Source: Candidatus Lokiarchaeum ossiferum
Lineage (GTDB): Archaea > Asgardarchaeota > Lokiarchaeia > Sigyniarchaeales > Promethearchaeaceae
DNA: 32,000 bases
Reading direction: 5' to 3'
Assembly: GCA_025839675.1 (NCBI GenBank)
Contig: CP104013.1
Coordinates: 5,490,001 to 5,522,000 of the forward strand
In this document: in pieces, positions 7,387-32,000 of the stretch
Layout of the letters: every line of letters begins with the position of its first letter
Position numbering within the stretch: the first letter of the stretch is position 1
Notes under the pieces: generated by a model
The model's input: only the letters and a program-made list of their open reading frames with translations
What the model was told of the DNA's origin: nothing
The model's database searches: none
Position numbers and translations under genes: made by a program

Positions 7387-8349
7387 TTAATTCAATTTCG
7401 CCCCACATGAATGACAAAAGAATTTATCTCCCTTCAAAGGAACATTACAAACGGGACAATTATTGTGTGTTTTTAGGGAGGGTTTGCCAATGATTCGAGG
7501 TCCATTTGCATTGATGTCTAAGGTGAAATCCCAATGATATCCATAGGCTACTAAAGCACTCAAGAATTCCGGTGGTAAAGTCATGTTGCCTGATTTTGAT
7601 ACAATCACGGAACGACTTTCTTTCAAATCATAGATATCGCTTCCTGCATTATGTTGACCAATAATCATTCCATCACTTAATTCAACACTCCTATCAGCAA
7701 AAGATGCAACATGTTGGCTATGAGTGACAATCAAGAAGGCTATATTTAATTCTTTATGCAGATCCCTGAAAAGTTGCATAACTTGTTCTGTATTTTTTGC
7801 ATCTAGGTTACCTGTTGGTTCATCGGCCAAGATTAATGCGGGGTTATTTGAAATTGCGCGTGCGATTGCTACTCTTTGCAATTCCCCTCCACTTAATCGC
7901 TGGGGAAGATCATGCATTCGGGACTCCATTCCTAACTTTTTTAAGAGTTCTTTGGCTCGTTTTCTTGCTTCACTTATTCCAACGCCAGAATATCTTAGAG
8001 TCCTAACCACATTATTATAGGCTGATAATTCTGGAATTAAATTTCCTTCTTGAAAAATGAACCCAATGGTTGATCTTCGAATGGGTACCAAAGCTTCTTC
8101 AGTCATTTGGGAAATATCTCTTCCAAAGTACCGAATTTCTCCAGCACTTGGCTTTTGCAATCCTCCCAAAGTTCTCAAGAGGGTTGATTTGCCAGCACCA
8201 GAAGTTCCTACAATGGCAACAAATTCCCCTTTTTTCATATCTAAATTTAAACCTTTCAAAGCTACAACATTATTTGCTCCTTCCAATCCTTTATAGATGG
8301 AATAAAGCCCATCTGCATCCAATAATAATTCATTCGTTTCCGTTGCCAT
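7387..8349 (-). CDS. ABC transporter ATP-binding protein (MacB/LolD-like) with a C-terminal AbrB-like segment and zinc ribbon
   Basis: Walker [11 protein letters not shown]-loop IGFIFQEG, signature LSGGELQR, Walker [14 protein letters not shown]-loop IVTHS. An extra ~85-aa tail contains [34 protein letters not shown] and [22 protein letters not shown]. Its ATG directly abuts the permease stop (TAAATG at 8352-8347). Confidence 0.9.
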
Positions 8350-11235: not shown

Positions 11236-11246
11236 GAGATTATCAC

Positions 11247-11990
11247 CTAAAGAGCTGTTATTTCCTCCAATTCTTTTTCTACTACTCCGTCACGCAAGAT
11301 AAAGACTTGATCTGAGGCGTGGGCTAGACTAACATCATGGGTTACCATTAAAATCGCTTTTCCCATTTTTGCGAGATCTTTAAAAAGTTCAATGATTTCT
11401 AAACCTGTTTGAGTATCCAAATTACCGGTAGGTTCATCGGCAAATAAAATGAAGGGGTCGTTTGCTAAAGCACGAGCTATTGCAACGCGTTGTTGTTGTC
11501 CTCCTGAAAGACCGTCGGGAAAATGATCCGCACGATCTTCCAATCCTACAATTCTTAGTAATTCTTTTGCCCGGTTTTCTGCCTCTTCTTCATATACTCC
11601 TGCTAAATTGAGGGGGATAATAACGTTTTCCAGCGCGGTTAGATTGTCAATTAATCCGAATGACTGAAAAATCCATCCGATGTGTTTCGATCTCATTTCG
11701 GTGAGTGAATCATCATCTAAATCATTCAGTATTGTATCCTTAATAGATACGCTTCCCGTTGTACTTTTAAGTAATCCTCCAACAATGTTGAGTAAAGTTG
11801 ATTTTCCACTCCCAGATGGTCCCATCAGTGCAAAAAAATCACCGAGTCTCATCTGAAAATTAATTCCCTTCAAAACGTAGACTTCATTTCGTTTTCCTTG
11901 ATTGAAGATTTTCTCGACATTTTGAACGATTAAAATATTATCGGCGGGTGTTGCTGTATTTTCCATGCTACACCGACCTGTTATTCCCAT
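11247..11990 (-). CDS. ABC transporter ATP-binding protein (MacB/LolD-like, canonical length)
   Basis: Walker [11 protein letters not shown]-loop IGWIFQSF, signature LSGGQQQR, Walker [14 protein letters not shown]-loop MVTHD. An alternative ATG at 11966 (MENTATPAD) is possible. Confidence 0.9.
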
Positions 11991-17057: not shown

Positions 17058-17246
17058 AGGGAATATGTTTTTTTAGTAATATTTAAACTTCTAGGTGTCC
17101 AGCATATTGAGAAAATACTCATTAGTAACTCTTCCATATTGGAAAGGATATTATTAAGCCAAAAAAATTATAGATCTTAGCCAATTTCTGATTGAAATAC
17201 GAGAAAGAAAAAATAGAAGGCGCGATTTTTAGCTTGGAGATAATAT

Positions 17247-18776
17247 TCAATCAATAATATTCAGAGAAGCGACCATGGAATCAAGATTCCAGGATGCAAT
17301 TCCGGAAATCCGCAGAAGAGCTAATAAAGAAAGATTATCTTCAAAATATTTTCCTGATCCCCCAATATTACCTTGATTGGCCATTATTGTGTCCCATCCG
17401 TTAGTAAGTTGAATTTCATTTCCAAAGTAGATATGGGTGGTCAATGCCATAACAAGATGTGAAAAATCATCCCAATTTTCCTCAAGTGGGGGTATTCCGG
17501 TTTCGATATCATAAAAACCTTTTAGGTTGCTTTGGTTTTCGAACCAAGAATGGTAGTCTCGAATATAGCGATCCACTTCAGAACCATTTACTTTTGATGA
17601 AAAATCCATATCTAAGATATTCCCGATTCTCCAAGGACATCGAACTGCATTTTGAGCTAAATCCCCATCATGGTTCCATTCTTCCCCTCCTTCCAGGAAA
17701 TATCCTACTGATTCATAGGCTTTATACAATCCTTCACCATTAAAAGCTGGACCATTAGGTGCAGGAATAATAGATGTTCCATTATTCAAATGGTCTATCC
17801 ACCCAAAATCAGGGACCATTGCGGAATGTATACCTGATGAACGTACATCTTCCAAATTGGAAATGGAATCTTGAAAGAGTTTTAGATACAATGATGCTTC
17901 ATCAATAAATTCCAGCTTCAATAATATTTTGTGGAAAAACAATAAACGATCTAATCCATAATCTGAAAATCGGGTACTATATTTCAAATGACTGTTACTT
18001 AATAACTGGGATTTAATCCAGTCCCCAATTGTCAATACATATCGTCTATTTGGGGCATCGTGAATAATATTACGTGGTAATCCACGTATCAATAAATTCA
18101 TCGCTGCATCAAAATATCTCGTTGTATTATCCTTTTGCTCCCAATTGAGATGGGCAAGCAACAAAGCATAACAGATATCAAGGTCTCCATCTGTGGCACT
18201 TCCTTGAATTGATACTTTCCCATATTGCGCGGGTGTAGGTACTAGCCATGCCATTAGCCCACTATTTGCAGGACTATTCTCGGATTTACATGCAAGGTAT
18301 GTTTTAAATAATCCATCAAAATATTGGCGAGCAGAAATGTTGTTTACTATAGTTCCCGCCATGTAAACTGAAATTAACATTCCATAGGAAATTCCTTCGG
18401 AAGTAGAACAGTAATTATCTGGATCCAAATCCCCCGGAAAAATACTTCCTGTTTGATCAACATAATAGGCTCCCTCCATCCCTGAAATGGACCACGGTTT
18501 AAAATAAGCATTTACGTAATTTGTGTACCAAGATTGAAGATCTGAAACTCTCTTGTTTAAGGAATAGGGATAATGGGATATTCCTCTTTTCTCCCCAGTC
18601 ATAGTCCAATTTTGTAGTGATTCATGATTTGAAAATGTGATAAATGCATCTGTGCTCAGAGACGAAGGAAGATCATCTTTTTCATTTGTCATATAAATAT
18701 ACACCGGGATTACTGTGCCAATAATAAGTAATGAGATGATAAATGCTCTAATTTTCCCTTTTTTTTTTAAAGTCAT
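17247..18776 (-). CDS. Membrane-anchored glycoside hydrolase family 8 (endoglucanase/chitosanase/xylanase family)
   Basis: 509 aa. N-terminal signal anchor KIRAFIISLLIIGTVIPVYIYM. TSEGISYGMLISVYM resembles the GH8 catalytic-Glu region. ATDGDLDICYALLLAHLNW matches the GH8 signature A-[ST]-D-[AG]-D-x2-[IM]-A-x-[SA]-[LIVM]-[LIVMG]-x-A-x3-[FW] with one mismatch (C for A). Confidence 0.8.
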   Translation of the reverse strand: MTLKKKGKIRAFIISLLIIGTVIPVYIYMTNEKDDLPSSLSTDAFITFSNHESLQNWTMTGEKRGISHYPYSLNKRVSDLQSWYTNYVNAYFKPWSISGMEGAYYVDQTGSIFPGDLDPDNYCSTSEGISYGMLISVYMAGTIVNNISARQYFDGLFKTYLACKSENSPANSGLMAWLVPTPAQYGKVSIQGSATDGDLDICYALLLAHLNWEQKDNTTRYFDAAMNLLIRGLPRNIIHDAPNRRYVLTIGDWIKSQLLSNSHLKYSTRFSDYGLDRLLFFHKILLKLEFIDEASLYLKLFQDSISNLEDVRSSGIHSAMVPDFGWIDHLNNGTSIIPAPNGPAFNGEGLYKAYESVGYFLEGGEEWNHDGDLAQNAVRCPWRIGNILDMDFSSKVNGSEVDRYIRDYHSWFENQSNLKGFYDIETGIPPLEENWDDFSHLVMALTTHIYFGNEIQLTNGWDTIMANQGNIGGSGKYFEDNLSLLALLRISGIASWNLDSMVASLNIID

Positions 18777-18977
18777 ATTCCCATCTCTCTGATTTCAAAT
18801 GACTCATTGTTAAAAAAATTTCAGTGAATTCTAATTTCAACATAAATTGTGATGAATTCTAATAATTTCATTCAAAATGATTAATCGATACAATAAATGG
18901 GAAGTTTCATTCAAGAAAAAATGATTCGTGTATAGTAAAATAGAAAAAAGTCAAATAATTGTCGATTTGATAAATCG

Positions 18978-20248: not shown

Positions 20249-20893
20249 TTATTCTTTAATATTTTCTTGATGATCTGGATCTTTTAAATTTTCTACTGTA
20301 TTTTTGGCCCTTCGGTCATAGTATTTCTGGCGCATTTGATCTTGGTTTATACGAATTTGATCTAAAACTATATTTCTCACTTTAAAGACATCCATAATTC
20401 CTTCGATGGAAAACATTCCAAACTTGGTTGCCCCCATTTCTACTCCCGCTGTTACAGGTAATAATACGCCAAAATTAAAGATACGCCCCCAGAGCGACTG
20501 ACGTAACACTAGATCAGTGATTCGTTTATATTCGATTTCCCTAAATAAGATGCCCAAAAACTTTCTTTGCATTATTATGCGTTTATTGGTGATGACATAC
20601 ATGTGCCCTTGCACAAACCATTTACCCACTAACATTGAAATCAGAAATATCCCTAACCATACATAGAAAAATATTAGGACAATAGTACCCATTACGCTCT
20701 TTATTGTGGGGAATGTCAACCCTAAAACTATTTGGATAACCAAAATAATGATCCATAAAATGCTATTATGTGCGATTTTTGGAATAAAATAGGAGTGGTT
20801 AGTTCTTTGAATTGTCTTAAAAACTTGTTCATCTTCTTCTAAATCAACGATATGATTTATTTCTGTTAAAATGGGATCCGCTTCTTCTGTCAT
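20249..20893 (-). CDS. YdbS-like membrane protein with one [2 TM + bPH_2 PH-like] module
   Basis: 214 aa. Two TM helices are followed by MYVITNKRIIMQRKFLGILFREIEYKRITDLVLRQSLWGRIFNFGVLLPV. It lies immediately upstream of the YdbT-like gene, with a 5-nt gap to the TTG start. Confidence 0.75.
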   Translation of the reverse strand: MTEEADPILTEINHIVDLEEDEQVFKTIQRTNHSYFIPKIAHNSILWIIILVIQIVLGLTFPTIKSVMGTIVLIFFYVWLGIFLISMLVGKWFVQGHMYVITNKRIIMQRKFLGILFREIEYKRITDLVLRQSLWGRIFNFGVLLPVTAGVEMGATKFGMFSIEGIMDVFKVRNIVLDQIRINQDQMRQKYYDRRAKNTVENLKDPDHQENIKE

Positions 20894-20968
20894 TTTAATA
20901 TTTCACTCAAAAGTTTCTCGTAATCACTAAATAGGATATCTCGCAGGAATATATGAGTGTTTCGCTAA

Positions 20969-21017
20969 TTCATATAAGATGAGAAAAAAAGAGTTCCTTT
21001 TGATGAACTGAAAATCT
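20969..21017. repeat. Upstream copy of the 49-bp direct-repeat core
   Basis: TTCATATAAGATGAGAAAAAAAGAGTTCCTTTTGATGAACTGAAAATCT matches 28985-29033 at 46 of 49 positions at a constant offset of 8016 bp. Similarity stops abruptly to the left of 20968/28984. Confidence 0.9.
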
Positions 21018-21028
21018 TGGAAAAGGAA

Positions 21029-21150
21029 TCAAATAATTTCGATGTTTTCTACCAAATACCCATCATTGAAGATGATTTTTAGCATTTTTCAAAATTGATC
21101 TACTTGAATTTCAATGAATTATCCTTTTATCATCCACCAGATGTGCATAA
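21029..21150 (-). pseudogene. Decayed fragment of an aIF1/SUI1 gene (C-terminal ~40 codons, two in-frame stops and one frameshift)
   Basis: Minus-strand hand translation gives LCTSGG[fs]IKG*FIEIQVDQF*KMLKIIFNDGYLVENIEII*. The intact gene at 29045-29365 reads YCASGGTVKGHTIEVQGDHRQKLLKFLLNIGYSEENIEII*. Identity is 17 of 29 over the last 29 codons, with the stop codon at the homologous position. Nucleotide identity is about 65% (73/113 by hand) at the same 8016-bp offset. Confidence 0.8.
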
Positions 21151-21246
21151 TCCAATGTCTATTTGATGGAAATCAAAGCAATAAGTGAAGTAAGGAGCAA
21201 AGCTTTATAAATTGTGGGAGTTTGGTCTATTTATCAATAAGAGAAA

Positions 21247-24200
21247 ATGAAAACCATGAAATTTTTGTTTCCTTTCTACGTGCGCTTATCACTTCAATGG
21301 ATAAAAAAATCTTATCTTATTATTATTTCTGTAAGTGTGACGCTGTCCATGATTTTAGCAACAAATCTCGTCATTGAAAGCGGTATTTCTGAAGATTTTA
21401 CGGCTCATATGGAAAATTCATCTGAGTTCATTATAGGGTCCCCTGAATCTACTACTATTATTCCCGAAAATATCGCTGCTGAACTTCAAGATTATGAAAA
21501 TCGGGTTTTGTCAATTTCGCAAACTTCGGAAAAGAATTCAAAATTATTTAGTGACATTGATTCTTATAAATTTTTTATGATTCATGCAGGTTGGGGTAGT
21601 TTTGGTTTACGGGAAAACTATCCGATTTCAAAAGGGAGTTTTGACTTTGGAAGTTTGACATCAAGAATTAATTTTTTTGTCTATCCCGAAAATTATTATC
21701 GGACGGAGAGATTTGCCAAAAATTTCATATTAATGGAAGGCTCTTATCCCAAAACAGAAACTGAAGTATTAGTCCCTTATACCTATAATTTGCTGTGGAA
21801 TTATCAAATTGGTGATGACTTTGATATGACTTATTTTGTTGGGGATTCATCTGTTACGGAATTTCGTCTTCAAGAAAATGGTTCTATTCAAATTGCATTT
21901 CCCAATCCAGATATCATTCAAAGAATTCATCTAAATTCCGTTAAAATTGTTGGATTTTATGTTTTTTCTTCCAGATTGATAGATATCCTTGGGGAGACCT
22001 ATCAAATGGATTTAACCTATGAAAAAATTATGGGAGATGATTTAGGATCAAATAATTATGATGATACACCTCTCTTTTTCTATTCTAATTTTTCCCAATC
22101 AAGCATTGCGAACCATCCTGCTTACCATTTCTACGATACCATTTTCCAAAATAATTCTCTTTTTAATGCAGTTATGCATCAAACTTACAATATATTGGGT
22201 GATAGCAATATTTTTCATTCTGGAATTACATTAGCACGAAGTTTGGATGAGATAAATTATAATGATATCACTTCGTATGAAAATCAATTAAATCAAATTC
22301 ATCAAGTCTTGCAAACGAGCTTCAAAACAGAAACTTATTTGAGAACTTATAGATATTCAATTAATAACCTTCGTTCTTATGTAGCCACTATGCGATTATA
22401 TTCTTTTGCTATTAATCTCCCATTAATGATTTTTACTATCTTTATTGCTTTTTCCAGTATGCAAAATTGGAAGAAGTCACGCTTGGATAGTTTTTTACAA
22501 TTGTCTATTAAAGGAATGACTAAAAAGCAAATTAGATCTCAAATGATTCTAGAAATCATTTCAATGAGTGTGATCTGTGTACTGATCAGCATTTTATTGA
22601 GTTTTATTCTATTTTTCCCTATAAGATCTACACTAATATCGTTGTTTTTTCCAACTTTATCTGTAAATCAAATTCAGATCACCATAAGTCCTTTTTGGAG
22701 TGCTTTTACCTTCTTATTTGCGTTTATTACTATTAGCATATCCTATAAGCATCTTTTTAAAACACTTAAAAAAACCGAAATACAAGATATTTATGAAAAT
22801 CAAAATCAAGAATATCTTCTGGGAATTTATAATGAGAATACTACTTATGCTGAGAAAAAACCAAAAAAAAATTCAAAAAAACATAAAGAGAGTCAATATG
22901 AAGATAGTGTTGAAGAAACAGAGAAATCAAATCGAAAAATCTCCTACTTTCTCTTTCCCTTTATACTTGTTCCTTTATTTGTTTACGGTTTAGCCTTGTA
23001 TTCTGCCAATCATGATCTTTCGAACGATTTATCTAATTTTGTCAATGATATTTTCCGTAGCGCTGGAGTGACAATGGTTTTTGCATTGATTTTACCTATT
23101 CTGATTGTGCTTTTTGGGATCTATCGGTTTTTGATTGTCGAATCACCTCGAAGATATGCTAAATTATGTTGCTTTCTATCTAAACCCTTAAATCGGGAGT
23201 TGAATTATTTGATGGGCTTGGAAATGATACGGAGGAAGGAATTTCGGTATATTATTATTATGCTGGTGGTTTTTCTTTCATCAACTTTCATTTTAAATCC
23301 ATATTCTACTTCAAGTGCAAGTTATCCCAAAGTGATTGCTAATAGTTTGATTGGCGCCGATATCACTATCGAAATTCAATTTGATGAGACCAATTTGGGG
23401 AGTCAAATCAGTCATACTGCTTTTGATTCTCAAATCCAAAATATTTTCGATGAAGAGAATATTTCATTAGAACAACCTCTTTCAGTAGTTACTCAAAGAG
23501 CTGAAATTTATGCAAAATCAGGAAGCGAAACATTGGTACAAAGAAGGATTCACTATTTTAACTTCTCACAATTTCTCAAATTTAATTCCCATCAGAATAA
23601 TCACTTTCCAAGCACAGTTTTGGATCAATCAATTGAAGATGTTGTTGAATACAATAAAGATCCTAATAGTTCGGATGTCGGGATTGTTTGTGGAAGCGCT
23701 TATGACTTCTATAAGGATCTGGAAGATTTTCCTCCCTTCGTTGTAAATATGACCTATTTCAATTCAAATTTAATGAAAATCGAATCGATCGAGTTAGAGT
23801 GTAAATTATTAGCACGAACGGATTCATTTTCACCTGTTAGTAATTACGAATCAGGGTATGATTATGGATGGGATCTATTTATTGACATTACTCACGTTTT
23901 ACCATTTAATTGCACCCTTTTAGCCCAAGAATATGTTTTTTTGGGAAATAAAATGGATAAAAGCGACGATTCCATTTTAAACAATGATAAATTAACTGAA
24001 TTCCTTGAAACGGAAACGAAGCAGTATGATATTAATGAAGTGGATTATCAATATATGCAATACAGCACCTCTTTTGCTCTATTTAAAACAAAATTAGGAT
24101 ATTCTCTTTATTCGTTATTATTACTCGCATTTAGTTTAACTATCAGTCAGGGTATAATGTTTATACATAGCACACGTAACAATTTTGTGTTTTATGGGCA

Positions 24201-24528
24201 TTTACTAACTCGAGGGGTAAGTAGAAAACAAGTATACTTATTTGGTTTAGGACAATTACTCCTTATGTTCTTTTTGGCAACGATAATTACTCTTATTACT
24301 ACTACTCTTCCAATAATACTTGCTTTAAAGGTGTTACCCGGGCAGATCGTAGCACAAGATACCTATAGATATGAATGGGCAATTGGAAAATATCCTGTTT
24401 TGCTCAACTGGCCCTTATTAGGGATCAATGTTTTCATTATTTTCTTAGGAACCATAATTCTTTATTCAGTTTTTATCAAATCCCATAAAACAGAATCCTT
24501 TTTTGAACATACAAAACAACAAAACTAA
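21247..24528 (+). CDS. ABC transporter permease, fused double FtsX/MacB-type (1093 aa) with two large ectodomains and a Lys-rich central linker
   Basis: N-terminal anchor SYLIIISVSVTLSMILATNLVI. FtsX-like segments are LQLSIKGMTKKQIRSQMILEIISMSVICVLISILLSF and YGHLLTRGVSRKQVYLFGLGQLLLMFFLATIITLI. The central linker is KKPKKNSKKHKESQYEDSVEETEKSNRK. Confidence 0.9.
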   Translation: MKTMKFLFPFYVRLSLQWIKKSYLIIISVSVTLSMILATNLVIESGISEDFTAHMENSSEFIIGSPESTTIIPENIAAELQDYENRVLSISQTSEKNSKLFSDIDSYKFFMIHAGWGSFGLRENYPISKGSFDFGSLTSRINFFVYPENYYRTERFAKNFILMEGSYPKTETEVLVPYTYNLLWNYQIGDDFDMTYFVGDSSVTEFRLQENGSIQIAFPNPDIIQRIHLNSVKIVGFYVFSSRLIDILGETYQMDLTYEKIMGDDLGSNNYDDTPLFFYSNFSQSSIANHPAYHFYDTIFQNNSLFNAVMHQTYNILGDSNIFHSGITLARSLDEINYNDITSYENQLNQIHQVLQTSFKTETYLRTYRYSINNLRSYVATMRLYSFAINLPLMIFTIFIAFSSMQNWKKSRLDSFLQLSIKGMTKKQIRSQMILEIISMSVICVLISILLSFILFFPIRSTLISLFFPTLSVNQIQITISPFWSAFTFLFAFITISISYKHLFKTLKKTEIQDIYENQNQEYLLGIYNENTTYAEKKPKKNSKKHKESQYEDSVEETEKSNRKISYFLFPFILVPLFVYGLALYSANHDLSNDLSNFVNDIFRSAGVTMVFALILPILIVLFGIYRFLIVESPRRYAKLCCFLSKPLNRELNYLMGLEMIRRKEFRYIIIMLVVFLSSTFILNPYSTSSASYPKVIANSLIGADITIEIQFDETNLGSQISHTAFDSQIQNIFDEENISLEQPLSVVTQRAEIYAKSGSETLVQRRIHYFNFSQFLKFNSHQNNHFPSTVLDQSIEDVVEYNKDPNSSDVGIVCGSAYDFYKDLEDFPPFVVNMTYFNSNLMKIESIELECKLLARTDSFSPVSNYESGYDYGWDLFIDITHVLPFNCTLLAQEYVFLGNKMDKSDDSILNNDKLTEFLETETKQYDINEVDYQYMQYSTSFALFKTKLGYSLYSLLLLAFSLTISQGIMFIHSTRNNFVFYGHLLTRGVSRKQVYLFGLGQLLLMFFLATIITLITTTLPIILALKVLPGQIVAQDTYRYEWAIGKYPVLLNWPLLGINVFIIFLGTIILYSVFIKSHKTESFFEHTKQQN

Positions 24529-24558
24529 CATGAATTCTAAAAAAAATCAAAATAAAAA

Positions 24559-25617
24559 ATGATGACAATCATGGAAGATACAGCAATAAATAGTCTAGAA
24601 AATACCCCAAAATCACCCATTGCCCAACTGGACGAGGTCTACAAGATATTCAAGAGTGGATCAAATGAAATAATGGCTTTAAAAAACATTAACTTGAAAA
24701 TTTATCCCGGAGAACTGATAGTTATTATGGGCCCGAGTGGATCTGGAAAAACAACCCTCTTACATGTCTTGGCTGGAATAACTCGCCCATCATCTGGCAC
24801 AATCATAGTAAATGATTTGGAAGTCCATCGATTAAAAGATCAAGGTATACAAGATCTCCTACAAAATCATATCGGAATTATTTTCCAATTCTTCAACCTA
24901 ATTCCTACTCTTTCTGCAGCAGGAAATGTTGAAATGCCAATGATTGTTTCTAAAGTGAATAAAAAAACGCGGAAAGAGAGGGTCAATTTACTATTAGATG
25001 AAGTTGAAATGCTTGATCGTGCCAACCATCGTCCTTATGCCCTTTCAGGTGGGGAAAAGCAAAGAATTGCCATTGCTCAGGCCTTTGCTAATGATCCTGA
25101 ATTAATTTTAGCCGATGAACCAACAGGTAATGTAGATTCGATTTCAGCCGAAAAAATAATGAGTTATTTTAAGAAAGTATTGATCGATAATCCTGAAAAA
25201 TCAATGGTAATTGTAACTCATGATAGTGCTTTCCGCAAAATTGCAGATCGAACAATGATCTTGAAGGATGGCGAGATTGTAAAGGAATATGGGCGTTTAG
25301 ATCAAAAGCCCCTTCAAGATAATTTTGAAGGGGAAAATGAAACAACTATTGCTTCCATTACTAAAAAACAAGAAGAAGCTAATTTAATAATAAATGGAGC
25401 GAAAAATTATCCTTTATTTAAAGATATTAAGGATTGTCCCCTCTGTCATTCGAAAAATATCTTAAAAAATTATGATAAGGACGGAGGTGCTATGTATTAT
25501 CAAAATCAGCAAATTGTAAGTCGAATTTCGATAGCTTGTCGTGAGTGTAACGAAATATCCTATCAATTTGGAGGGATTTTTGATCTTAAACGGGATCTCC
25601 ATGACCCAAATAAATAG
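24559..25617 (+). CDS. ABC transporter ATP-binding protein (MacB/LolD-like) with a C-terminal four-Cys zinc ribbon
   Basis: Walker A GPSGSGKTT, Q-loop IGIIFQFF, signature LSGGEKQR, Walker [14 protein letters not shown]-loop IVTHD. The ~115-aa tail contains CPLCHS..(29 aa)..CRECNE, with the ribbon at nt 25435-25554. Confidence 0.9.
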   Translation: MMTIMEDTAINSLENTPKSPIAQLDEVYKIFKSGSNEIMALKNINLKIYPGELIVIMGPSGSGKTTLLHVLAGITRPSSGTIIVNDLEVHRLKDQGIQDLLQNHIGIIFQFFNLIPTLSAAGNVEMPMIVSKVNKKTRKERVNLLLDEVEMLDRANHRPYALSGGEKQRIAIAQAFANDPELILADEPTGNVDSISAEKIMSYFKKVLIDNPEKSMVIVTHDSAFRKIADRTMILKDGEIVKEYGRLDQKPLQDNFEGENETTIASITKKQEEANLIINGAKNYPLFKDIKDCPLCHSKNILKNYDKDGGAMYYQNQQIVSRISIACRECNEISYQFGGIFDLKRDLHDPNK

Positions 25618-25660
25618 AAATCATTTTTTAGGAATGAAGTAAAAAAAAAATCTGATCACT

Positions 25661-28600
25661 ATGTCAATCAAGTTTAAATACACTTTATCTCAAGCGCTTC
25701 AAGCCATTCGACGTTCTCCTCTACTTATTATTGGTTTAGCTTCAATATTGGCAATGATAAGTGTTATGAATATTTATGTATACAATGCAAGAAATTACCA
25801 AATTGAAAATTTTGAATCTAGCTATTTTGAAATAGGAATTTACAACTCTACTGAGGATGCCTCCCATATTGCTTTCAATCATGATATTTTTGGAAGTAAT
25901 TTTATTCAAATCGATCAACAGATTAAATCTAGTTTTTCGATTGAATCCAGCAATCCGCTTTATTATTTAACCAATGATAATTTACAATTAGCCATCAACA
26001 AAAGCGGAAATTTAGACAGATCGGATGATTTAGCATTAATGTTCTCAGATATCAATTTTTATAATTCAGATCATTTTGATCGATATTTTGAACTTTATGA
26101 TGGAAGAAGACCGCAAAATACATCAGAATATATTATTGACATTGTTTCAGCCGTAAAACTTGGGTTTCATGAAAGTACGGAAGATTACTTGCCATTTGCT
26201 TTTCTAGATAAACAAAATGCTTCGATAATTGTAGATACATTGAATATAAATCAAACCAATGGAAAAATTGTTGGTATTTTTATACCTAAACAAACCTTGG
26301 TAAAATTTTTTGACTACTCCCCTGCAAAGTTGACATATTCTCAAGATTATAGTTCTGTTGACTCATTTCAACATGCTACTCTCCAAGAATGGAAAAATGC
26401 CATCATTATGGGTCTGATCGATTTTGATTTCAATTATAACAATCCAGTAATAACCCAACTTAATTCATCATATAACAATTTACCTATTAATTCTACGCAA
26501 TCTTGGGTGTGTGTGAGTGCAATGGGCTACCATTATGACCGGAGTACAATCAATATTAATAGCATTTCCCGAGAAGAAAAAGTTTTTCATGATAAATGGT
26601 TTCAATTGTATAATTTGTTTGAACATGATACAAAAATCTTTACGACAAGTATGTATGAGCTATTTTATGATTCATTAGAAAATGCACGCAATTTATATGT
26701 TTATCAGATAATGAATATTCCGTTGTTGATTTGTGCGGTGCTAATAGGGCAGATCCTAGTTAAGGCTTCCTTTTCCTCCCGCTTAATTTCTTACAACCAT
26801 GCTTTAATAAAAGGATATCCCCGAAAAATGATCAATAATCAATTAATCTGGGAAATCATCTGTATGGGTACAATTGTCGGGATTTTAAGTGTTGTATTTA
26901 GCTGGATAATTTACAGACCGGTTCAAAATACTTTGAATCCACTCATCGGATCAAGTACATTTACAAGTTTTGGAAATGATACTGGATATTATGAAAATGT
27001 TCGTTTATTCGCCCCAGAAGCATATTTGAAGTTTTCTTTAACTGTTGGTTTGGTTCTTGGAATCATAGCTATAGGAATTCTACTCTGCGCGGTGATTTAT
27101 GCAAAACTAATTTATCATTTCAATCAAATGAAACGGTATGAAATCGCTGATTCCTTGGAACAATTTGAATTGAATTCTCTATTAAGTGAAAACTTGTTAA
27201 TTTCTCAAAACAAAAAAAAGAAGAAGAAGCAAAACAAGGCTGAGAAAAAACTCCAAGAAAAGTCTAACGATTCCCCGAAAATTGAAGAAAATAAATATAA
27301 ATCTGTTGATTATGAATATTCTAAAGGAATCAAAAAATTTGGATTAGTTGTATTTTTAATTGGTTGGGTTCCAATATTATTAATTCTTTTTATTCAGCTG
27401 GGATATTATTCTGAAATTGATCGGATTGCATATGCGGCTCAAAAAATGAATGAATATAATAAGTATTTTGTATTTCCCGCTTTTTTCAGTCCATTTGTTA
27501 TAATTTATGGCATAGTTCGATGGCTTTTATTTGAAAAACCTCTCTTTTATGCGAATATTTGTGAAAAATTCACCGGGTTGTTCCTAGGTGAAAAAGGGGT
27601 GCTAAATGCACTTGAAACACTGCGATTTAAAAATCTTAAAAAAATATCTCTAATTTTAGCTGTGATTTCTGGATCTTTTATATTTTGTAATTTAGCATTG
27701 AATTCTTCAATGATCTCAAAACCCACACTACAAAATGTCATAATTGGAGGGGATTTTAATATTCAAGCTACTAACACCCGGAACTATATGGAAGAAGGAA
27801 ATCAAACAATCCTTTTTGATGATTTGATCACCATTGAAAAAATAATTTCGAATCAATCCTATTATTCTGATGATTACATGGATGTGGCTACCAATTCTCT
27901 GATATCTTTAAGTGATATTAGCTCCGCTAATTATGGATTTGATACTATTGTTTTGACTAATTTTTCCAAGTATTGTCATGTCGCTCAATCTCGGCAAGTT
28001 CAGTCAATTATTCCAAATTTATATTCCAAATTACAGAAAACTCTTCTGTATAATGATCAAAATTCGGAATACATTGGAGTATTAGTTACTGATAGATTTT
28101 TAAATTATTATCAATATGAAGTTGGTGCTATTTTCACAATAAACCCAGAGTTGTTTCCATTTAGCGAAAATTTTGCTTCGCAAGAATTGATCTCGCTAAA
28201 AATTATTGATTCCATAGAAACTATCCCTGGTCTATTAAGGGGTTATTCTTATGATTATCAAATTTTGGCTGATTTTTCCAATTTTGTGTCCATTGGGGAA
28301 GAATTAACTTACGATTCATTGAATTTTATTGGAACCCTAAATTCTACGAATACGGATAGTTATAGGGAAATCATATTCCAAGATGTTTGTCCCATGGAAG
28401 AAGTTGCATTCCGCTATTCTGATCCTCTTTATTTAAATGTTGCTACTGAAGTTGATGATGGAACTACACGTATCTTTTCTCCTAAAGGTGATACAAAAGA
28501 AATATATCTTCTCTATATCGAATCGGCAATATTACTTATTTTTCTAGTAATTAGTATTGTAATTTTGATACTGCAATATCGTAAAGAAAATCGAGGTTAT

Positions 28601-28921
28601 CATGGTTTATTGCTGGTTCAAGGATTCGGAAAAAAGAACCTATCAATGCTTGTTATTGCACAGCTGATATTTGTTATTTTTTCCACGCTCTTTATAGGTT
28701 TACTTGTCGGTTTTTCTGCAGGTGGAATGTGGACTGTAAGTTACTTAAGGTTAGAGTCATTTAATGGTGTTTCCAATCTCAATTTACCAATAGTTTTCAA
28801 TTTAAAAGAATTTTTGTTTGTAATTGGGGTTCTTTTAAGCGGTACTTTCCTTTTTATGGGTGTTTTACTTTTTACAGATCGGAAGAAGGAATATGCACAA
28901 TATTTATCTCATGAAGAATAG
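25661..28921 (+). CDS. ABC transporter permease, fused double FtsX/MacB-type (1086 aa) with two large ectodomains and a Lys-rich central linker
   Basis: N-terminal LSQALQAIRRSPLLIIGLASILAMISVMNIYV. FtsX-like segments are NHALIKGYPRKMINNQLIWEIICMGTIVGILSVVFSW and HGLLLVQGFGKKNLSMLVIAQLIFVIFSTLFIGLLVGF. The linker is SQNKKKKKKQNKAEKKLQEKSND. Confidence 0.9.
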   Translation: MSIKFKYTLSQALQAIRRSPLLIIGLASILAMISVMNIYVYNARNYQIENFESSYFEIGIYNSTEDASHIAFNHDIFGSNFIQIDQQIKSSFSIESSNPLYYLTNDNLQLAINKSGNLDRSDDLALMFSDINFYNSDHFDRYFELYDGRRPQNTSEYIIDIVSAVKLGFHESTEDYLPFAFLDKQNASIIVDTLNINQTNGKIVGIFIPKQTLVKFFDYSPAKLTYSQDYSSVDSFQHATLQEWKNAIIMGLIDFDFNYNNPVITQLNSSYNNLPINSTQSWVCVSAMGYHYDRSTININSISREEKVFHDKWFQLYNLFEHDTKIFTTSMYELFYDSLENARNLYVYQIMNIPLLICAVLIGQILVKASFSSRLISYNHALIKGYPRKMINNQLIWEIICMGTIVGILSVVFSWIIYRPVQNTLNPLIGSSTFTSFGNDTGYYENVRLFAPEAYLKFSLTVGLVLGIIAIGILLCAVIYAKLIYHFNQMKRYEIADSLEQFELNSLLSENLLISQNKKKKKKQNKAEKKLQEKSNDSPKIEENKYKSVDYEYSKGIKKFGLVVFLIGWVPILLILFIQLGYYSEIDRIAYAAQKMNEYNKYFVFPAFFSPFVIIYGIVRWLLFEKPLFYANICEKFTGLFLGEKGVLNALETLRFKNLKKISLILAVISGSFIFCNLALNSSMISKPTLQNVIIGGDFNIQATNTRNYMEEGNQTILFDDLITIEKIISNQSYYSDDYMDVATNSLISLSDISSANYGFDTIVLTNFSKYCHVAQSRQVQSIIPNLYSKLQKTLLYNDQNSEYIGVLVTDRFLNYYQYEVGAIFTINPELFPFSENFASQELISLKIIDSIETIPGLLRGYSYDYQILADFSNFVSIGEELTYDSLNFIGTLNSTNTDSYREIIFQDVCPMEEVAFRYSDPLYLNVATEVDDGTTRIFSPKGDTKEIYLLYIESAILLIFLVISIVILILQYRKENRGYHGLLLVQGFGKKNLSMLVIAQLIFVIFSTLFIGLLVGFSAGGMWTVSYLRLESFNGVSNLNLPIVFNLKEFLFVIGVLLSGTFLFMGVLLFTDRKKEYAQYLSHEE

Positions 28922-28984
28922 TTAACATTTCATGAAATTTTTTCATTTTATCTCTAATTTTTCTTTGAACTCGATGGATGTCCA

Positions 28985-29033
28985 TTCAAATAAGATGAGA
29001 AAAAAAGAGTTCCTTTTGAAAAACTGAAAATCT
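28985..29033. repeat. Downstream copy of the 49-bp direct-repeat core; contains the probable SUI1 oligo-T terminator
   Basis: TTCAAATAAGATGAGAAAAAAAGAGTTCCTTTTGAAAAACTGAAAATCT is 46/49 identical to 20969-21017. The A7 at 29000-29006 is a T7 on the SUI1 strand, 39-45 nt past the stop codon. Confidence 0.9.
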
Positions 29034-29044
29034 ATAATGAGGAT

Positions 29045-29365
29045 TTAGATGATCTCGATGTTTTCTTCTGAATAACCGATATTAAGAAGGAATTTTAGCA
29101 ATTTTTGCCGATGGTCACCTTGGACTTCAATGGTGTGCCCTTTTACGGTTCCACCCGATGCACAATAACCTTTGGCTTTTTTAGCTATTTTTTTGAGATT
29201 CGCACCACCGAAATTAGCGAAGTTAATAACGCTCATGGCCTTACCCCATTTTCTTTTATCCACATAGATTGTGATTTTCTGCTCTTCTTGCGCAAGCGAT
29301 TCGCATACGCACAGTTCTGTTGGTAAACTGCATTTTGGACAAATTCCAATTAACGATTTTGGCAT
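29045..29365 (-). CDS. sui1: Translation initiation factor aIF1 / SUI1 with N-terminal zinc ribbon
   Basis: 106 aa. ICPKCSLPTELCVCESLAQEEQKITIYVDKRKWGKAMSVI..CASGGTVKGHTIEVQGDHRQKLLKFL closely follows the archaeal SUI1 pattern (CPxCGLPxELCxCE..KRRFGK..GGTVK..IELQGDHR). A TATA-like CTATAAAAGG lies about 30 nt upstream of the ATG, suggesting a short or absent leader. Confidence 0.9.
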   Translation of the reverse strand: MPKSLIGICPKCSLPTELCVCESLAQEEQKITIYVDKRKWGKAMSVINFANFGGANLKKIAKKAKGYCASGGTVKGHTIEVQGDHRQKLLKFLLNIGYSEENIEII

Positions 29366-29504: not shown

Positions 29505-31922
29505 TTATTTCCATACTTCAGCAATTTTAGTTAGAATTCCCAATTCTTTAGGATTGATAATATGTGGATCAATAATTATCATGAGAATTCCATTATTTAT
29601 TGTGGCTTGGTCACTTAGCGATTCCAAGAGTTTGCATACCATGGAAAACGGATGGTAGTTCATCAAGTACTCAAGACCTTCAAATAGGACGAGATTGATC
29701 TTATCATTCGGGTGAACGGACAATTGTTGATCTTTGAATGTGGTAGCTCTTATCTGAAGGACTTTTTTAGTCATGTAAAAAATAAGCTCTGGTTTGGGAG
29801 GAAGGAATAGTTGAGTTTCATCTATAATACTTGTATTCATCCATAAAATTCGCCCACAAGATATTCCAAATTTCGATTTGAGATGATTGGGGGCTTTTCG
29901 ACTAATGATTACTTTATTGAAGAATTCATTAGAAATTTGGGAGAAAATGTGCATAGGTTTTGAAATATCATTTTTTAAGAAAAGATATGTCTTTCCAGAA
30001 TCCAGTTTTTTGTTAATATCAGCGGATTGGTGTTTTCTCACCTGAGAAAGAATTTTCTTACGTTGAATTAAAACAGTCGAACCTACAATTCCTATAAGGG
30101 ATCCCCATAAATAATTGAATTGCGATCGATTTTCAATTAATGCTCCTGAATCGGGAGAATTATCTGATATTGTTGTGTTTAATTGAGTTTCTGTTGAGGT
30201 TGTCATAGTCGAGTGAGAATCTGTAATTGATGAAACGAAGCCATCTTCAATTACGAAACTTCCCATTGTTGGAGGACTCATATTTCCTCCTTCATCAACT
30301 TGATATAACCAGAAGTAAAATTGCCCTTCAATTAGACCAGTAATGGAATAATGACTATTGTTTCCATCCAGATTGAGGATGGTAATATTGAATAATAGGC
30401 TCTCTGTATTTGCCAAATTTCTATCTGTGGAGATAATTAGAAGGTAATGATGTATTCCTCCAAGATCATAACCATCTTCCCAGTCGAATTCAATGATATT
30501 ACCTGGTTGGCCTACAATGTTCATTGATAATTCTGGTGAAGGTGGGGGAGTAGAATCAACTAGTTTCAGTTGGTTATTATAACTTCTCCATGAAAAATCG
30601 ATATATTGGACAAAAATAGTAAAATCTGAAGTGCCTATTTTAATTGGGATAACATCAAACCATTGCCATAACCATTCTTGTTCCGTAGATTCAAGGGAAT
30701 AGTTTTGGTTTTCAAATTGAATCTTCAATTGGAGGACTGTTGATAGTTCCGCTGGAATAATGGTAATATTTTGCAGATTTTCAATCTCCTGGTCTAAATT
30801 AGAGATTTGGATTCCATAATTTATGGGTGGATGTGTTTCCTCATCACCAAATTCATATGATAATATATAGGAATTGTTACTTGGAATGGCGAAATTGTCA
30901 AAAACGGATTCAGATTCACCGTTACAAAATATTCCAATGATTCCGGATTCTAAAATGTATGTATTGGTGATATTGAGTTGAAGAATTGAATCGAGAAATA
31001 TTTCTATACGTTCTTCTTGGTACTTGATTGCGAGATTATACCAGACATTTGATAATAATTCCGATTCCGGTTTTCCATTTGATGAAACAAATTCAATTCC
31101 ACTGGAAGTTCCTTTACCTATGGCAGTGTGAAAATTCCACAAACCTAAGCCTGCTATCAAAAATTTATTTTTATTTATTCCTCGAAAAATGATTCCAACC
31201 TCAAAATCATCCCCCCTACTAAGAATATCCAACTGAATTTGTCCATTTTGCGAAGAATAATCTTGATAATAGGATATTCGTTCATTTTGATATGTGTCTA
31301 AGTTTGCGGGATTTTCATGATATTGTTGTTCTAGCACATACCAGTTTTCTTCTATGCCGGTCCAGTCCTCAACCACTCCATCTGGTTGACTAAAATCATC
31401 ATAAACCTCTGAATCCATCTCCAATAATTGGGGAAATGTCATAGCATGTGGATTTCCATAATAAAGATAATGATTTTGAACGGGATTTTCTTCTTCAATT
31501 GTGGTTTCAATTTGAAAAGCAATAACAGTCTTCGTTGTATTAAATGCTGTCTGATTTTTATACTCCAAATTATGGTAATATGAATTCTCGGCATCAAACC
31601 AAATGATACGTAGATCTAATCCCTTGAAATTCATTTTTCTATCTGCAATTAATTGTTTAGTATTCAACTCGATTTGAATCAATGATTTGTTTGGAATTTG
31701 AAAGGAATTGGGATTATCTAAATTTAGTGCTTGTCGATAATTGAATGAGTAATTCCACCATGCTGTAGGTATATTTGATGCTATTGGAGAAGATGGTTGT
31801 GGTATATAAGAAGAAGTATTTATCGATTCCGCTGAATTATTTTGGATAAATGGAGAAACCATACTTAGAAGCACACATGGTGCTAAAAGTAAATACACTA
31901 GTTTGAATCGCTGAAAATCCAT
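29505..31922 (-). CDS. Receptor-like single-pass membrane protein: signal peptide, DUF2341-like, LamG/concanavalin-like and Fn3-like ectodomain, TM helix, cytoplasmic DUF835 domain
   Basis: The likely start is the ATG at 31922 (MDFQRFKLVYLLLAPCVLLSMVSPF, signal-like). The track ORF is extended to the window edge by a TTG. WWNYSFNYRQALNLDNP..LDLRIIWFD is DUF2341-like. EFDWEDGYDLGGIHHYLL..EGQFYFWLYQVDEGGNMS is Fn3-like. An S/T-rich stalk and the TM helix YLWGSLIGIVGSTVLI follow. The C-terminal VIISRKAPNHL..ILWMN..LVLFEGLEYLMNYHPFSMVCKLLESLSD..ILMIIIDPHIINPKELGIL matches the DUF835 pattern. Confidence 0.8.
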   Translation of the reverse strand: MDFQRFKLVYLLLAPCVLLSMVSPFIQNNSAESINTSSYIPQPSSPIASNIPTAWWNYSFNYRQALNLDNPNSFQIPNKSLIQIELNTKQLIADRKMNFKGLDLRIIWFDAENSYYHNLEYKNQTAFNTTKTVIAFQIETTIEEENPVQNHYLYYGNPHAMTFPQLLEMDSEVYDDFSQPDGVVEDWTGIEENWYVLEQQYHENPANLDTYQNERISYYQDYSSQNGQIQLDILSRGDDFEVGIIFRGINKNKFLIAGLGLWNFHTAIGKGTSSGIEFVSSNGKPESELLSNVWYNLAIKYQEERIEIFLDSILQLNITNTYILESGIIGIFCNGESESVFDNFAIPSNNSYILSYEFGDEETHPPINYGIQISNLDQEIENLQNITIIPAELSTVLQLKIQFENQNYSLESTEQEWLWQWFDVIPIKIGTSDFTIFVQYIDFSWRSYNNQLKLVDSTPPPSPELSMNIVGQPGNIIEFDWEDGYDLGGIHHYLLIISTDRNLANTESLLFNITILNLDGNNSHYSITGLIEGQFYFWLYQVDEGGNMSPPTMGSFVIEDGFVSSITDSHSTMTTSTETQLNTTISDNSPDSGALIENRSQFNYLWGSLIGIVGSTVLIQRKKILSQVRKHQSADINKKLDSGKTYLFLKNDISKPMHIFSQISNEFFNKVIISRKAPNHLKSKFGISCGRILWMNTSIIDETQLFLPPKPELIFYMTKKVLQIRATTFKDQQLSVHPNDKINLVLFEGLEYLMNYHPFSMVCKLLESLSDQATINNGILMIIIDPHIINPKELGILTKIAEVWK

Positions 31923-32000
31923 ATCGACATTCTCCAATGAAATTAATAATCCGATAGTGGGCAGCTTAGGGAGATTTTCTCTCTTTATAGGACATATCAA

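Follow-up and report, generated by a model that had tools for sequence, protein, structure and literature searches.

An 8-kb ABC-transporter operon between att-like direct repeats at the SUI1 gene of Candidatus Lokiarchaeum ossiferum

In strain B35 of Candidatus Lokiarchaeum ossiferum, an 8016-bp segment carrying a three-gene ATP-binding cassette (ABC) transporter operon lies between the aIF1/SUI1 gene and a YdbS-like gene and is bounded by direct repeats; in a second cultured strain, B36, the same site is empty. The window analyzed here is a stretch of 32,000 nt of the B35 contig CP104013.1 (assembly GCA_025839675.1, positions 5,490,001 to 5,522,000 of the forward strand), in which the cargo permease is NEF87_004694; coordinates refer to the window unless a comparison sequence is named. 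A first-pass annotation made from the sequence alone had proposed that the ABC module was inserted between SUI1 and YdbS. This interpretation is supported by the empty site in B36 and by the adjacency of the two genes in an outgroup, and the feature is real: a cassette with junctions resembling attachment (att) sites and a verified empty site. We consider it probable, with moderate confidence, that the segment is an accessory cassette without a recombinase, lodged in the ancestral spacer between SUI1 and YdbS and best read as a Campbell-type, att-flanked, cargo-only islet resembling the cis-mobilizable elements (CIMEs) of bacteria.

Asgard genomes are unusually large and gene-rich, and their mode of gene gain is debated. 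The locus presents an accessory operon resolved to the base pair, bounded by repeats of native spacer sequence and with a verified empty site, in two cultured L. ossiferum strains. Genome-wide recurrence of such loci, if true, would point to cassette-style gene gain; taken alone, the locus is an ordinary genomic islet.

The direct repeat and the empty site in strain B36

Self-comparison of the window by blastn aligned positions 20968-21143 with 28984-29160 as a direct repeat at an 8016-bp offset (177 nt, 73.4% identity, E = 5e-23), and a repeat-finding run returned 20968-21129 against 28984-29145 (162 nt, 74%, spacing 8016). The repeat is two-tiered, with a 50-nt core followed rightward by 11 nt of diverged 3' untranslated region (UTR) and then by about 135 nt of homology to the 3' end of SUI1. 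The two core copies, designated U (20968-21017) and D (28984-29033), are identical at 47 of 50 positions, with the three mismatches at 20973 and 21004-21005. A 30-nt exact stretch, ATAAGATGAGAAAAAAAGAGTTCCTTTTGA, occurs at 20974 and 28990 and nowhere else in the window when up to 3 mismatches are allowed, with 0 matches expected by chance. Similarity stops sharply at 20967/28983, and identity drops at the core's left edge in one step, without gradient (12/12 matches, then 5/11); leftward of copy U, toward lower coordinates, the sequence continues as spacer of the B36 type and then YdbS. The possibility that the core is a dispersed motif was rejected, as there was no other copy in the window, none in the comparison sequences L001-L011 (30-nt core, up to 5 mismatches) and no match in viral, metagenome and genome contig collections, which apparently hold no L. 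ossiferum, so that only part of the B35 genome was covered.

An exact-protein look-up of SUI1 returned four places, and six contigs were read. An independent Logan assembly (L001, SRR22273277) is 100% identical to the window over both junctions, and two further filled Logan assemblies (L003, SRR32148620; L004, SRR32148622) match the SUI1-side junction at 100%. The empty site was found in CP163304 (L002), a complete genome of 6.27 Mb, where a gene for an identical SUI1 protein is followed by the core and then by the bPH_2/YdbS-like gene. CP163304 is the genome of strain B36 (bioRxiv 10.64898/2026.02.13.705702), and a text search of that preprint found no mention of the locus. When aligned with the window (alignment A2), the B36 site matches copy D from SUI1 through the core and copy U from the core onward into YdbS. 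Left of the 30-nt stretch, copy D has the host-type TT and copy U a private CA; right of it, copy D has a private T and copy U the host-type A. Because these diagnostic mismatches (TT/CA, A/T) bracket the stretch, the exchange point lies inside the identical 30 nt, TCAAAAGGAACTCTTTTTTTCTCATCTTAT. The pattern of switches is the signature of a reciprocal crossover, readable in either direction. Since the flanks of B35 and B36 are 99-100% identical right up to both junctions, as against a genome-wide average nucleotide identity of 97.2% (bioRxiv 10.64898/2026.02.13.705702), the event that distinguishes the strains is recent and precise, and limited to the segment bounded by the cores.

Relatives were found through the YdbS-like protein, and three lineages were compared. 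In the outgroup, represented by three independent assemblies (L023-L025; YdbS 68% and SUI1 95% identical at the amino acid level), the gene order is MFS-RsmB-...-SUI1-YdbS-YdbT-...-ABC ATPase-permease. SUI1 and YdbS are adjacent there, separated by a 137-nt spacer that is homologous to the B36 spacer and can be aligned with it. Because the outgroup also has the empty arrangement, SUI1 and YdbS were neighbors ancestrally, and the ABC operon was inserted between them. These two loci supply the empty site that the first-pass annotation had asked to see, and a tandem SUI1 duplication lacking the ABC genes, which it had named as a counterexample, was not seen in any locus examined. The spacer has been broken independently in a closer relative (L021, L022; YdbS 88% identical in amino acids and about 80% in nucleotides), where a divergently oriented repeat-protein gene lies upstream of YdbS. 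Homology of L021 to copy U of B35 covers YdbS and the core (39/50) and weakens beyond it, and no remnant of psiSUI1 (the decayed SUI1 copy described below) or SUI1 at that locus was significant against shuffled sequences. In the distant lineage L026, YdbS is not linked to SUI1. By these comparisons the core is native sequence of the ancestral spacer, the T-rich 3' UTR of SUI1, and not an element-specific sequence; it is likely the SUI1 terminator.

The decayed SUI1 end and the contents of the segment

The downstream copy of the repeat is the 3' end of the intact SUI1 gene (Table 1), and the upstream copy holds a decayed fragment of the same gene end, psiSUI1, which matches SUI1 by tblastn (E = 3e-6) and is 66% identical to it over the last 105 nt. 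It translates as ..MIKG*FIEIQVDQF*KMLKIIFNDGYLVENIEII*. Two stops interrupt the frame, one nucleotide of the downstream copy (at about 29147-29150) is missing, and the stop codon at 21029-21031 occupies the position homologous to that of SUI1; the invariant SUI1 motif QGDHR has become QVDQF. Because its differences from SUI1 are distributed as 11/9/16 over the three codon positions and are accompanied by the two stops and the frameshift, the sequence of psiSUI1 indicates long neutral decay. No sampled lineage qualifies as its donor: it is equally far from all 37 SUI1 homologues (best 23/41 aa; 59-67% nt), none of them closer than the others. The functional SUI1 3' end of B35 is 98% identical to that of B36 over the last 105 nt and is the host's own, because the crossover falls downstream of the SUI1 stop codon. 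psiSUI1 is part of the inserted DNA; it is neither a surrogate end in use nor a displaced original.

The two tiers of the repeat differ in age. Within B35, psiSUI1 and SUI1 share the 66% given above while their cores match at 47/50. Between B35 and the outgroup L023, the same last 105 nt of SUI1 are 82% identical and the core matches at 35-36/52; against L012 the SUI1 value is 76% and the core was not compared; and against the closer relative L021, whose contig is without SUI1, the core matches at 37-39/50. The probability of at least 46 identities in 49 positions, given a background identity of 66%, is 4e-6, so the repeat is not one uniformly aged duplication. It is a mosaic, 50 to about 197 nt long, in which a dead SUI1 end of old date adjoins a core that is young or has recently recombined.

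Between the repeats there are only three genes, encoding a permease, an ABC ATPase and a second permease. Matches of the ATPase to the NCBIfam LolD, MacB and FtsE models all fall under the equivalog cut-offs. The intergenic gaps of the cassette measure only 30, 43, 62 and about 80 nt and thus leave no room for a recombinase gene, and no integrase was found in the window, L001 or L002. The two ends of the segment are not related by an inverted repeat, and PADLOC returned no defense system, only a generic ATPase match. Loci with paralogues of the cargo permease (L005-L011) contain no SUI1 fragments and no cores. A 30-nt similarity between the cassette tail and the gene for a 961-aa permease elsewhere in the window (pair I7) is at chance level for the window. 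An RNA gene or structured site in the core was rejected, as the core region has no Rfam match and folds no better than shuffled sequences (z = +0.04 to +1.6).

Table 1. Features of the cassette and its junctions (window coordinates)
Feature	Coordinates	Strand	Evidence or remarks
YdbS-like bPH_2 gene, NEF87_004691	20249..20893	-	other flank of the ancestral spacer
Core copy U (attR-like)	20968..21017		beside YdbS promoter region; 47/50 to copy D; exact stretch 20974-21003
psiSUI1, decayed SUI1 3' fragment	21018..21165	-	about 45 codons plus 11-nt 3' UTR remnant between stop and core
ABC operon upstream region	21166..21246	+	predicted promoter region of the operon; TATA-like CTTTATAAAT at about 21203-21212; abuts truncated psiSUI1 end
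Cargo gene 1, 1093-aa FtsX-type permease	21247..24528	+	Pfam FtsX E = 1.6e-5
Cargo gene 2, 352-aa ABC ATPase, LolD/MacB/FtsE type, with C-terminal Cys-rich tail	24559..25617	+	Pfam ABC_tran E = 3e-35
Cargo gene 3, 1086-aa FtsX-type permease, NEF87_004694	25661..28921	+	FtsX-type
62-nt tail of inserted DNA	28922..28983		last cargo stop codon to core copy D; no counterpart in empty site
Core copy D (attL-like)	28984..29033		native SUI1 3' UTR/terminator region, T-rich on SUI1 strand
Intact aIF1/SUI1 gene, 106 aa, target side	29045..29365	-	Pfam SUI1 E = 2e-16

What the first-pass annotation described is borne out by these results in all particulars checked: the direct repeat at its 8016-bp offset, the sharp left end of similarity, a core of 46/49 positions (here extended to 47/50), a SUI1 coding part of about 65% nucleotide identity, a functional downstream gene end, an upstream copy with two stops, a frameshift and a homologous stop codon, and three transporter genes between the repeats with no integrase or transposase inside. 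The three conditions under which it would have given up insertion (no empty sites, a dispersed core, a tandem SUI1 duplication without the ABC genes) all turned out in favor of insertion, the dispersed core within the scope of the searches above. The pattern of a surrogate 3' end that it invoked stands in part. A diverged duplicate of the gene end does accompany an identical core, but psiSUI1 is not a surrogate in use, as the crossover lies beyond the SUI1 stop.

Origin of the segment

The 8016-bp segment consists of the 62-nt tail, the three-gene FtsX/ABC operon, its predicted promoter region, and the old dead SUI1 3' end with the left part of the spacer. This structure is the one expected from a reciprocal, Campbell-type crossover. 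A circle with the order promoter-psiSUI1-core-tail-operon (attP-like) would recombine with the chromosomal SUI1-core-YdbS arrangement (attB-like), and the exchange would take place within the 30-bp identical stretch of the 50-bp core in the native SUI1 3' UTR and spacer. The reverse reaction by the same pair of cores would restore the empty site, giving the polymorphism of a filled B35 and an empty B36. The predicted junction of the circular intermediate is psiSUI1-core-TTGAATGGACATCC (minus strand ...GAAAACATCGAAATTATTTGATTCCTTTTCCAAGATTTTCAGTTCATCAAAAGGAACTCTTTTTTTCTCATCTTATTTGAATGGACATCCATCGAGTTC...), and the predicted empty junction in B35 is SUI1-...CAGTTTTTCAAAAGG...CTTATATGAATTAGCGAAAC-YdbS. 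The psiSUI1 arm would long have been carried by the cargo, or have travelled with it. As at the att sites of tyrosine recombinases, a shared core is present at both junctions and the empty site is made of the outer halves of attL and attR. The catalyst may have been a tyrosine recombinase acting in trans or host homologous recombination on 30-50 bp of identity, and we hold these two to be about equally likely. A site-specific recombinase in trans is suggested by the sharp fall of identity at the core's left edge and by a core length within the range of archaeal att sites, 29-69 bp (PMC6563490); repeated integration and excision by such an enzyme would leave only the crossover region host-like. 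Host homologous recombination would be an equally simple catalyst, especially for loss.

Several results weigh against such a mobile cassette. Profile searches of its three genes found no integrase or recombinase gene in or beside it, and the core lacks both a stable structure and inverted binding arms: in a search for arms of the 11-6-11 or a similar type, the best 11-nt pair matched at 8/11 (p = 0.55 against shuffled controls). No homologue of the cargo permease above 51% identity was found by protein search outside contigs of the B35 type, searches for the permease family in genome, metagenome and viral collections found nothing, and the repeat region had no plasmid match. A circular attP junction, a second integration or a related full-length element was likewise not found in the collections searched. 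The composition of the cassette is host-like (tetranucleotide r = 0.983; GC content 31.6% vs 34.3%) and thus gives no sign of foreign origin, so that the idea of a foreign composition, which the first-pass annotation had offered as a check on insertion, was rejected. In addition, the sequences would be identical, and the two histories indistinguishable, whether B35 gained the segment or B36 lost it by deletion between the repeats; loss is as plausible as gain because B36 demonstrably lost other DNA nearby, the GH8 gene described below.

A different history, which we regard as possible though not likely, needs neither a mobile element nor an integrase. The operon would have entered the spacer once, in the stem of L. 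ossiferum, duplicating about 197 nt that comprise the SUI1 3' end and the left spacer; psiSUI1 would have decayed in place, and the cores would have been kept alike by constraint (as the SUI1 terminator and as an upstream element of YdbS) together with gene conversion. Ordinary homologous recombination of one 50-bp repeat with the other would later have removed the operon from B36. Such an old insertion agrees with a psiSUI1 far older than the B35/B36 split, with the loss of the neighboring GH8 gene in B36, and with the host-like composition and the lack of any recombinase or recombinase-type site architecture. It also suits a native core, part of which is kept upstream of YdbS in L021 even though SUI1 is missing there. 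However, orthologous cores fell to 69-78% over less SUI1 divergence than that between psiSUI1 and SUI1, so that the 94% identity of the paralogous cores needs extra concerted evolution on this account. The abruptness of the core's left-edge identity step (12/12, then 5/11), the empty state of the outgroup and the lack of a cargo orthologue in relatives also speak against it.

Import from a diverged Lokiarchaeum relative seems to us improbable. It would have proceeded by homologous or homology-facilitated illegitimate recombination, with one end anchored in the conserved spacer or YdbS and the other joined illegitimately, bringing in a truncated foreign SUI1 3' end. Allelic replacement does look common in the species, as at a second locus the two strains share 67% identity over a paralogous ABC module whose flanks are 99.2% identical. 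The nearby RsmB gene fits import as well: its B35 and B36 versions switch sharply from 97-100% identity (60-nt windows 93-100%) to about 65% at about nt 1200-1224, and a distal fragment of it differs from the functional end mostly at third codon positions (15/9/36), having thus diverged elsewhere as a working gene. At SUI1, though, the fragment is no closer to any sampled lineage (59-67% to all) and bears the marks of decay and not of orthologous divergence; a donor so distant would not share a core of 94-96%, given that the core is already down to 69% where the SUI1 end is at 82%; and the junction flanks are 99-100% B36-like. The chance that the arrangement is an assembly artefact or a fortuitous similarity is negligible. 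Independent assemblies exclude an artefact, with both junctions at 100% in L001 and the SUI1 side also in L003 and L004, and neither a repeat of E = 5e-23 nor a 30-mer with 0 expected chance matches is compatible with coincidence. The att-flanked cassette remains the account we favor.

Variable slots nearby and comparison with known systems

The RsmB gene offers a parallel to SUI1 in its own neighborhood, and the two cases lie within 16 kb of each other in B35. The regions compared were L001 1315-7366 (B35) and L002 5738-7444 (B36). A B35-specific block of 4.5 kb (L001 2696-7233), 8 kb beyond SUI1 and outside the window, contains a 779-aa gene and a gene for a beta-helix protein, and just after the 779-aa gene, at L001 5301-5520, the RsmB 3' end (2473-2693) is repeated over 223 nt with 74% identity. 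This distal copy is open except for one frameshift in a T-run and, because its differences lie mainly at third codon positions, it has diverged as a working gene end. The switch of identity between the strains is placed about 156-180 nt before the RsmB stop, and the identity of about 65% extends over the last 156 nt or so. A functional end that differs between strains, with a displaced copy whose divergence is of the purifying-selection type, is what would be expected if the ends carried by cassettes served in alternation as the true end of the gene. Duplicated gene ends next to cargo found in one strain thus recur here, which leaves a general cassette mechanism open, yet homologous exchange with diverged relatives can also produce such ends. 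Stated generally, L. ossiferum would gain and swap accessory genes in the form of cassettes free of recombinases; every cassette would dock at the 3' end of a conserved backbone gene through an arm, its own copy of that gene end, and be moved in trans by a host or viral recombinase. We consider this generalization doubtful.

At the second locus mentioned above (L005-L008, B35-type, vs L009 5591-13393, B36), a paralogous permease-ATPase-permease module lies beside an NTP-transferase gene. The module is 67% identical in nucleotides and 59% in amino acids between the strains, and identity switches to the 99.2% of the adjoining flank within about 80 nt of the module end. The pattern suggests that alleles of a hypervariable surface or transport module have been replaced.

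Within the window, a GH8-family gene (17247-18776, 509 aa; compared as window 17101-18972) is missing from B36, which has about 130 nt of unrelated sequence instead. The gene is also present after YdbT in L021, and was therefore lost or replaced in B36. The GH8 segment has no flanking direct repeats. A change of the YdbT C-terminus at this indel was considered and rejected: the C-termini are identical, and the lengths of 421 and 415 aa reflect start-codon calling. A different ABC module (7387-11990) belongs to the conserved backbone and consists of a 320-aa ATPase with a zinc-ribbon tail, the 961-aa FtsX permease and a 247-aa ATPase. Genes for the 247-aa ATPase and the 961-aa permease are also found in B36 and in the outgroup L023 (73.7% nt), and the ATPase motif region of this module accounts for an inverted repeat, I1 (7801-7890 vs 25048-25137). 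Between RsmB and SUI1, a DUF835 gene (window 29505-32000 vs L002 7444-9861) is specific to L. ossiferum, and nowhere does the B35/B36 flank diverge more than over the N-terminal region of its product (93-96% identity). In the outgroup this slot is taken by a 214-aa gene together with an AsnC-family gene. On these comparisons, all slots between backbone genes in the region appear to vary among lineages.

The SUI1-YdbS spacer also seems to be a rearrangement breakpoint, since DUF285-like tandem-repeat protein genes with a 75-nt internal period (L021 1-1527, L012 773-3499) sit there in relatives, upstream of YdbS in L021 and downstream of SUI1 in L012, and RsmB is inverted relative to SUI1 in L012. 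In another Promethearchaeia lineage (L019, about 10370-11565), a group II intron with a GTGCG 5' end and an RVT_1/GIIM open reading frame lies directly after the T-rich terminator downstream of SUI1, and otherwise identical contigs (L017, L018) are without the intron. The 3' flank of SUI1 may accordingly be viewed as a candidate insertion hotspot in several lineages.

In Campbell-type integration, a circle carrying a chromosome-homologous segment integrates by single crossover, as suicide plasmids do, and the reverse reaction is a direct-repeat deletion by homologous recombination. The SUI1 locus is like such an integration in that the homologous segment is duplicated on both sides, each copy is chimeric, and the switch lies in the longest identical stretch. 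It differs in needing a circle that already carried a near-identical core beside a 66%-identical gene fragment. Xer/dif modules, which are recombinase-less cassettes mobilized by the host Xer, resemble the proposed cassette in concept, in that a tyrosine recombinase of the host would move the cargo. Archaeal dif sites are 28-bp sequences of 11-6-11 structure (PMC2958812, PMC8371274), whereas the cassette core is without dif-like inverted-repeat architecture, and an Xer/dif module, either an integrative mobile element exploiting Xer (IMEX) or a dif module, was rejected in view of no flanking 11-6-11 sites above chance. A transposon or casposon was rejected on the lack of terminal inverted repeats and on a duplication that is 50 to about 197 nt long and mosaic, not a short identical target-site duplication. 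An integron cassette was rejected as well, with no structured attC-like site, no Rfam match and no integrase in the window, L001 or L002.

Integrated elements of archaea that occupy 3'-distal or intergenic sites (PMC6563490) resemble the SUI1 cassette in their direct repeats at the junctions, the empty site in a close relative, a core within 29-69 bp and a target at or after the 3' end of a gene. They differ in carrying integrases or casposases together with replication or virion genes, whereas the SUI1 cassette has a transporter operon only, and the repeat of the SUI1 cassette includes a long decayed gene fragment.

CIMEs of streptococci are integrated at the 3' ends of housekeeping genes such as fda, rpsI, rpmG and rplL (PMC7563491). 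Like these, the SUI1 cassette is cargo-only and within a size of 1-13 kb, lies between att-type direct repeats beside the 3' end of a conserved translation or housekeeping gene, and varies in presence between strains. It has kept att-like flanking sites and lacks all recombination and transfer genes, including an integrase. In contrast, CIMEs are demonstrated deletion derivatives of integrative and conjugative or integrative and mobilizable elements and move by accretion with a functional element at the same att site, and the SUI1 cassette is without a known parent element, an integrase for the site or a conjugation system, in a host that is an Asgard archaeon. Nothing in the collections searched shares the core or is related to the cargo at more than 51% identity; of the B35 and B36 genomes, the scans took in only parts. 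With neither a parent element nor a recombinase known to act at the site, the SUI1 cassette is a candidate member of the CIMEs, and the bacterial CIME is the closest known kind of element.

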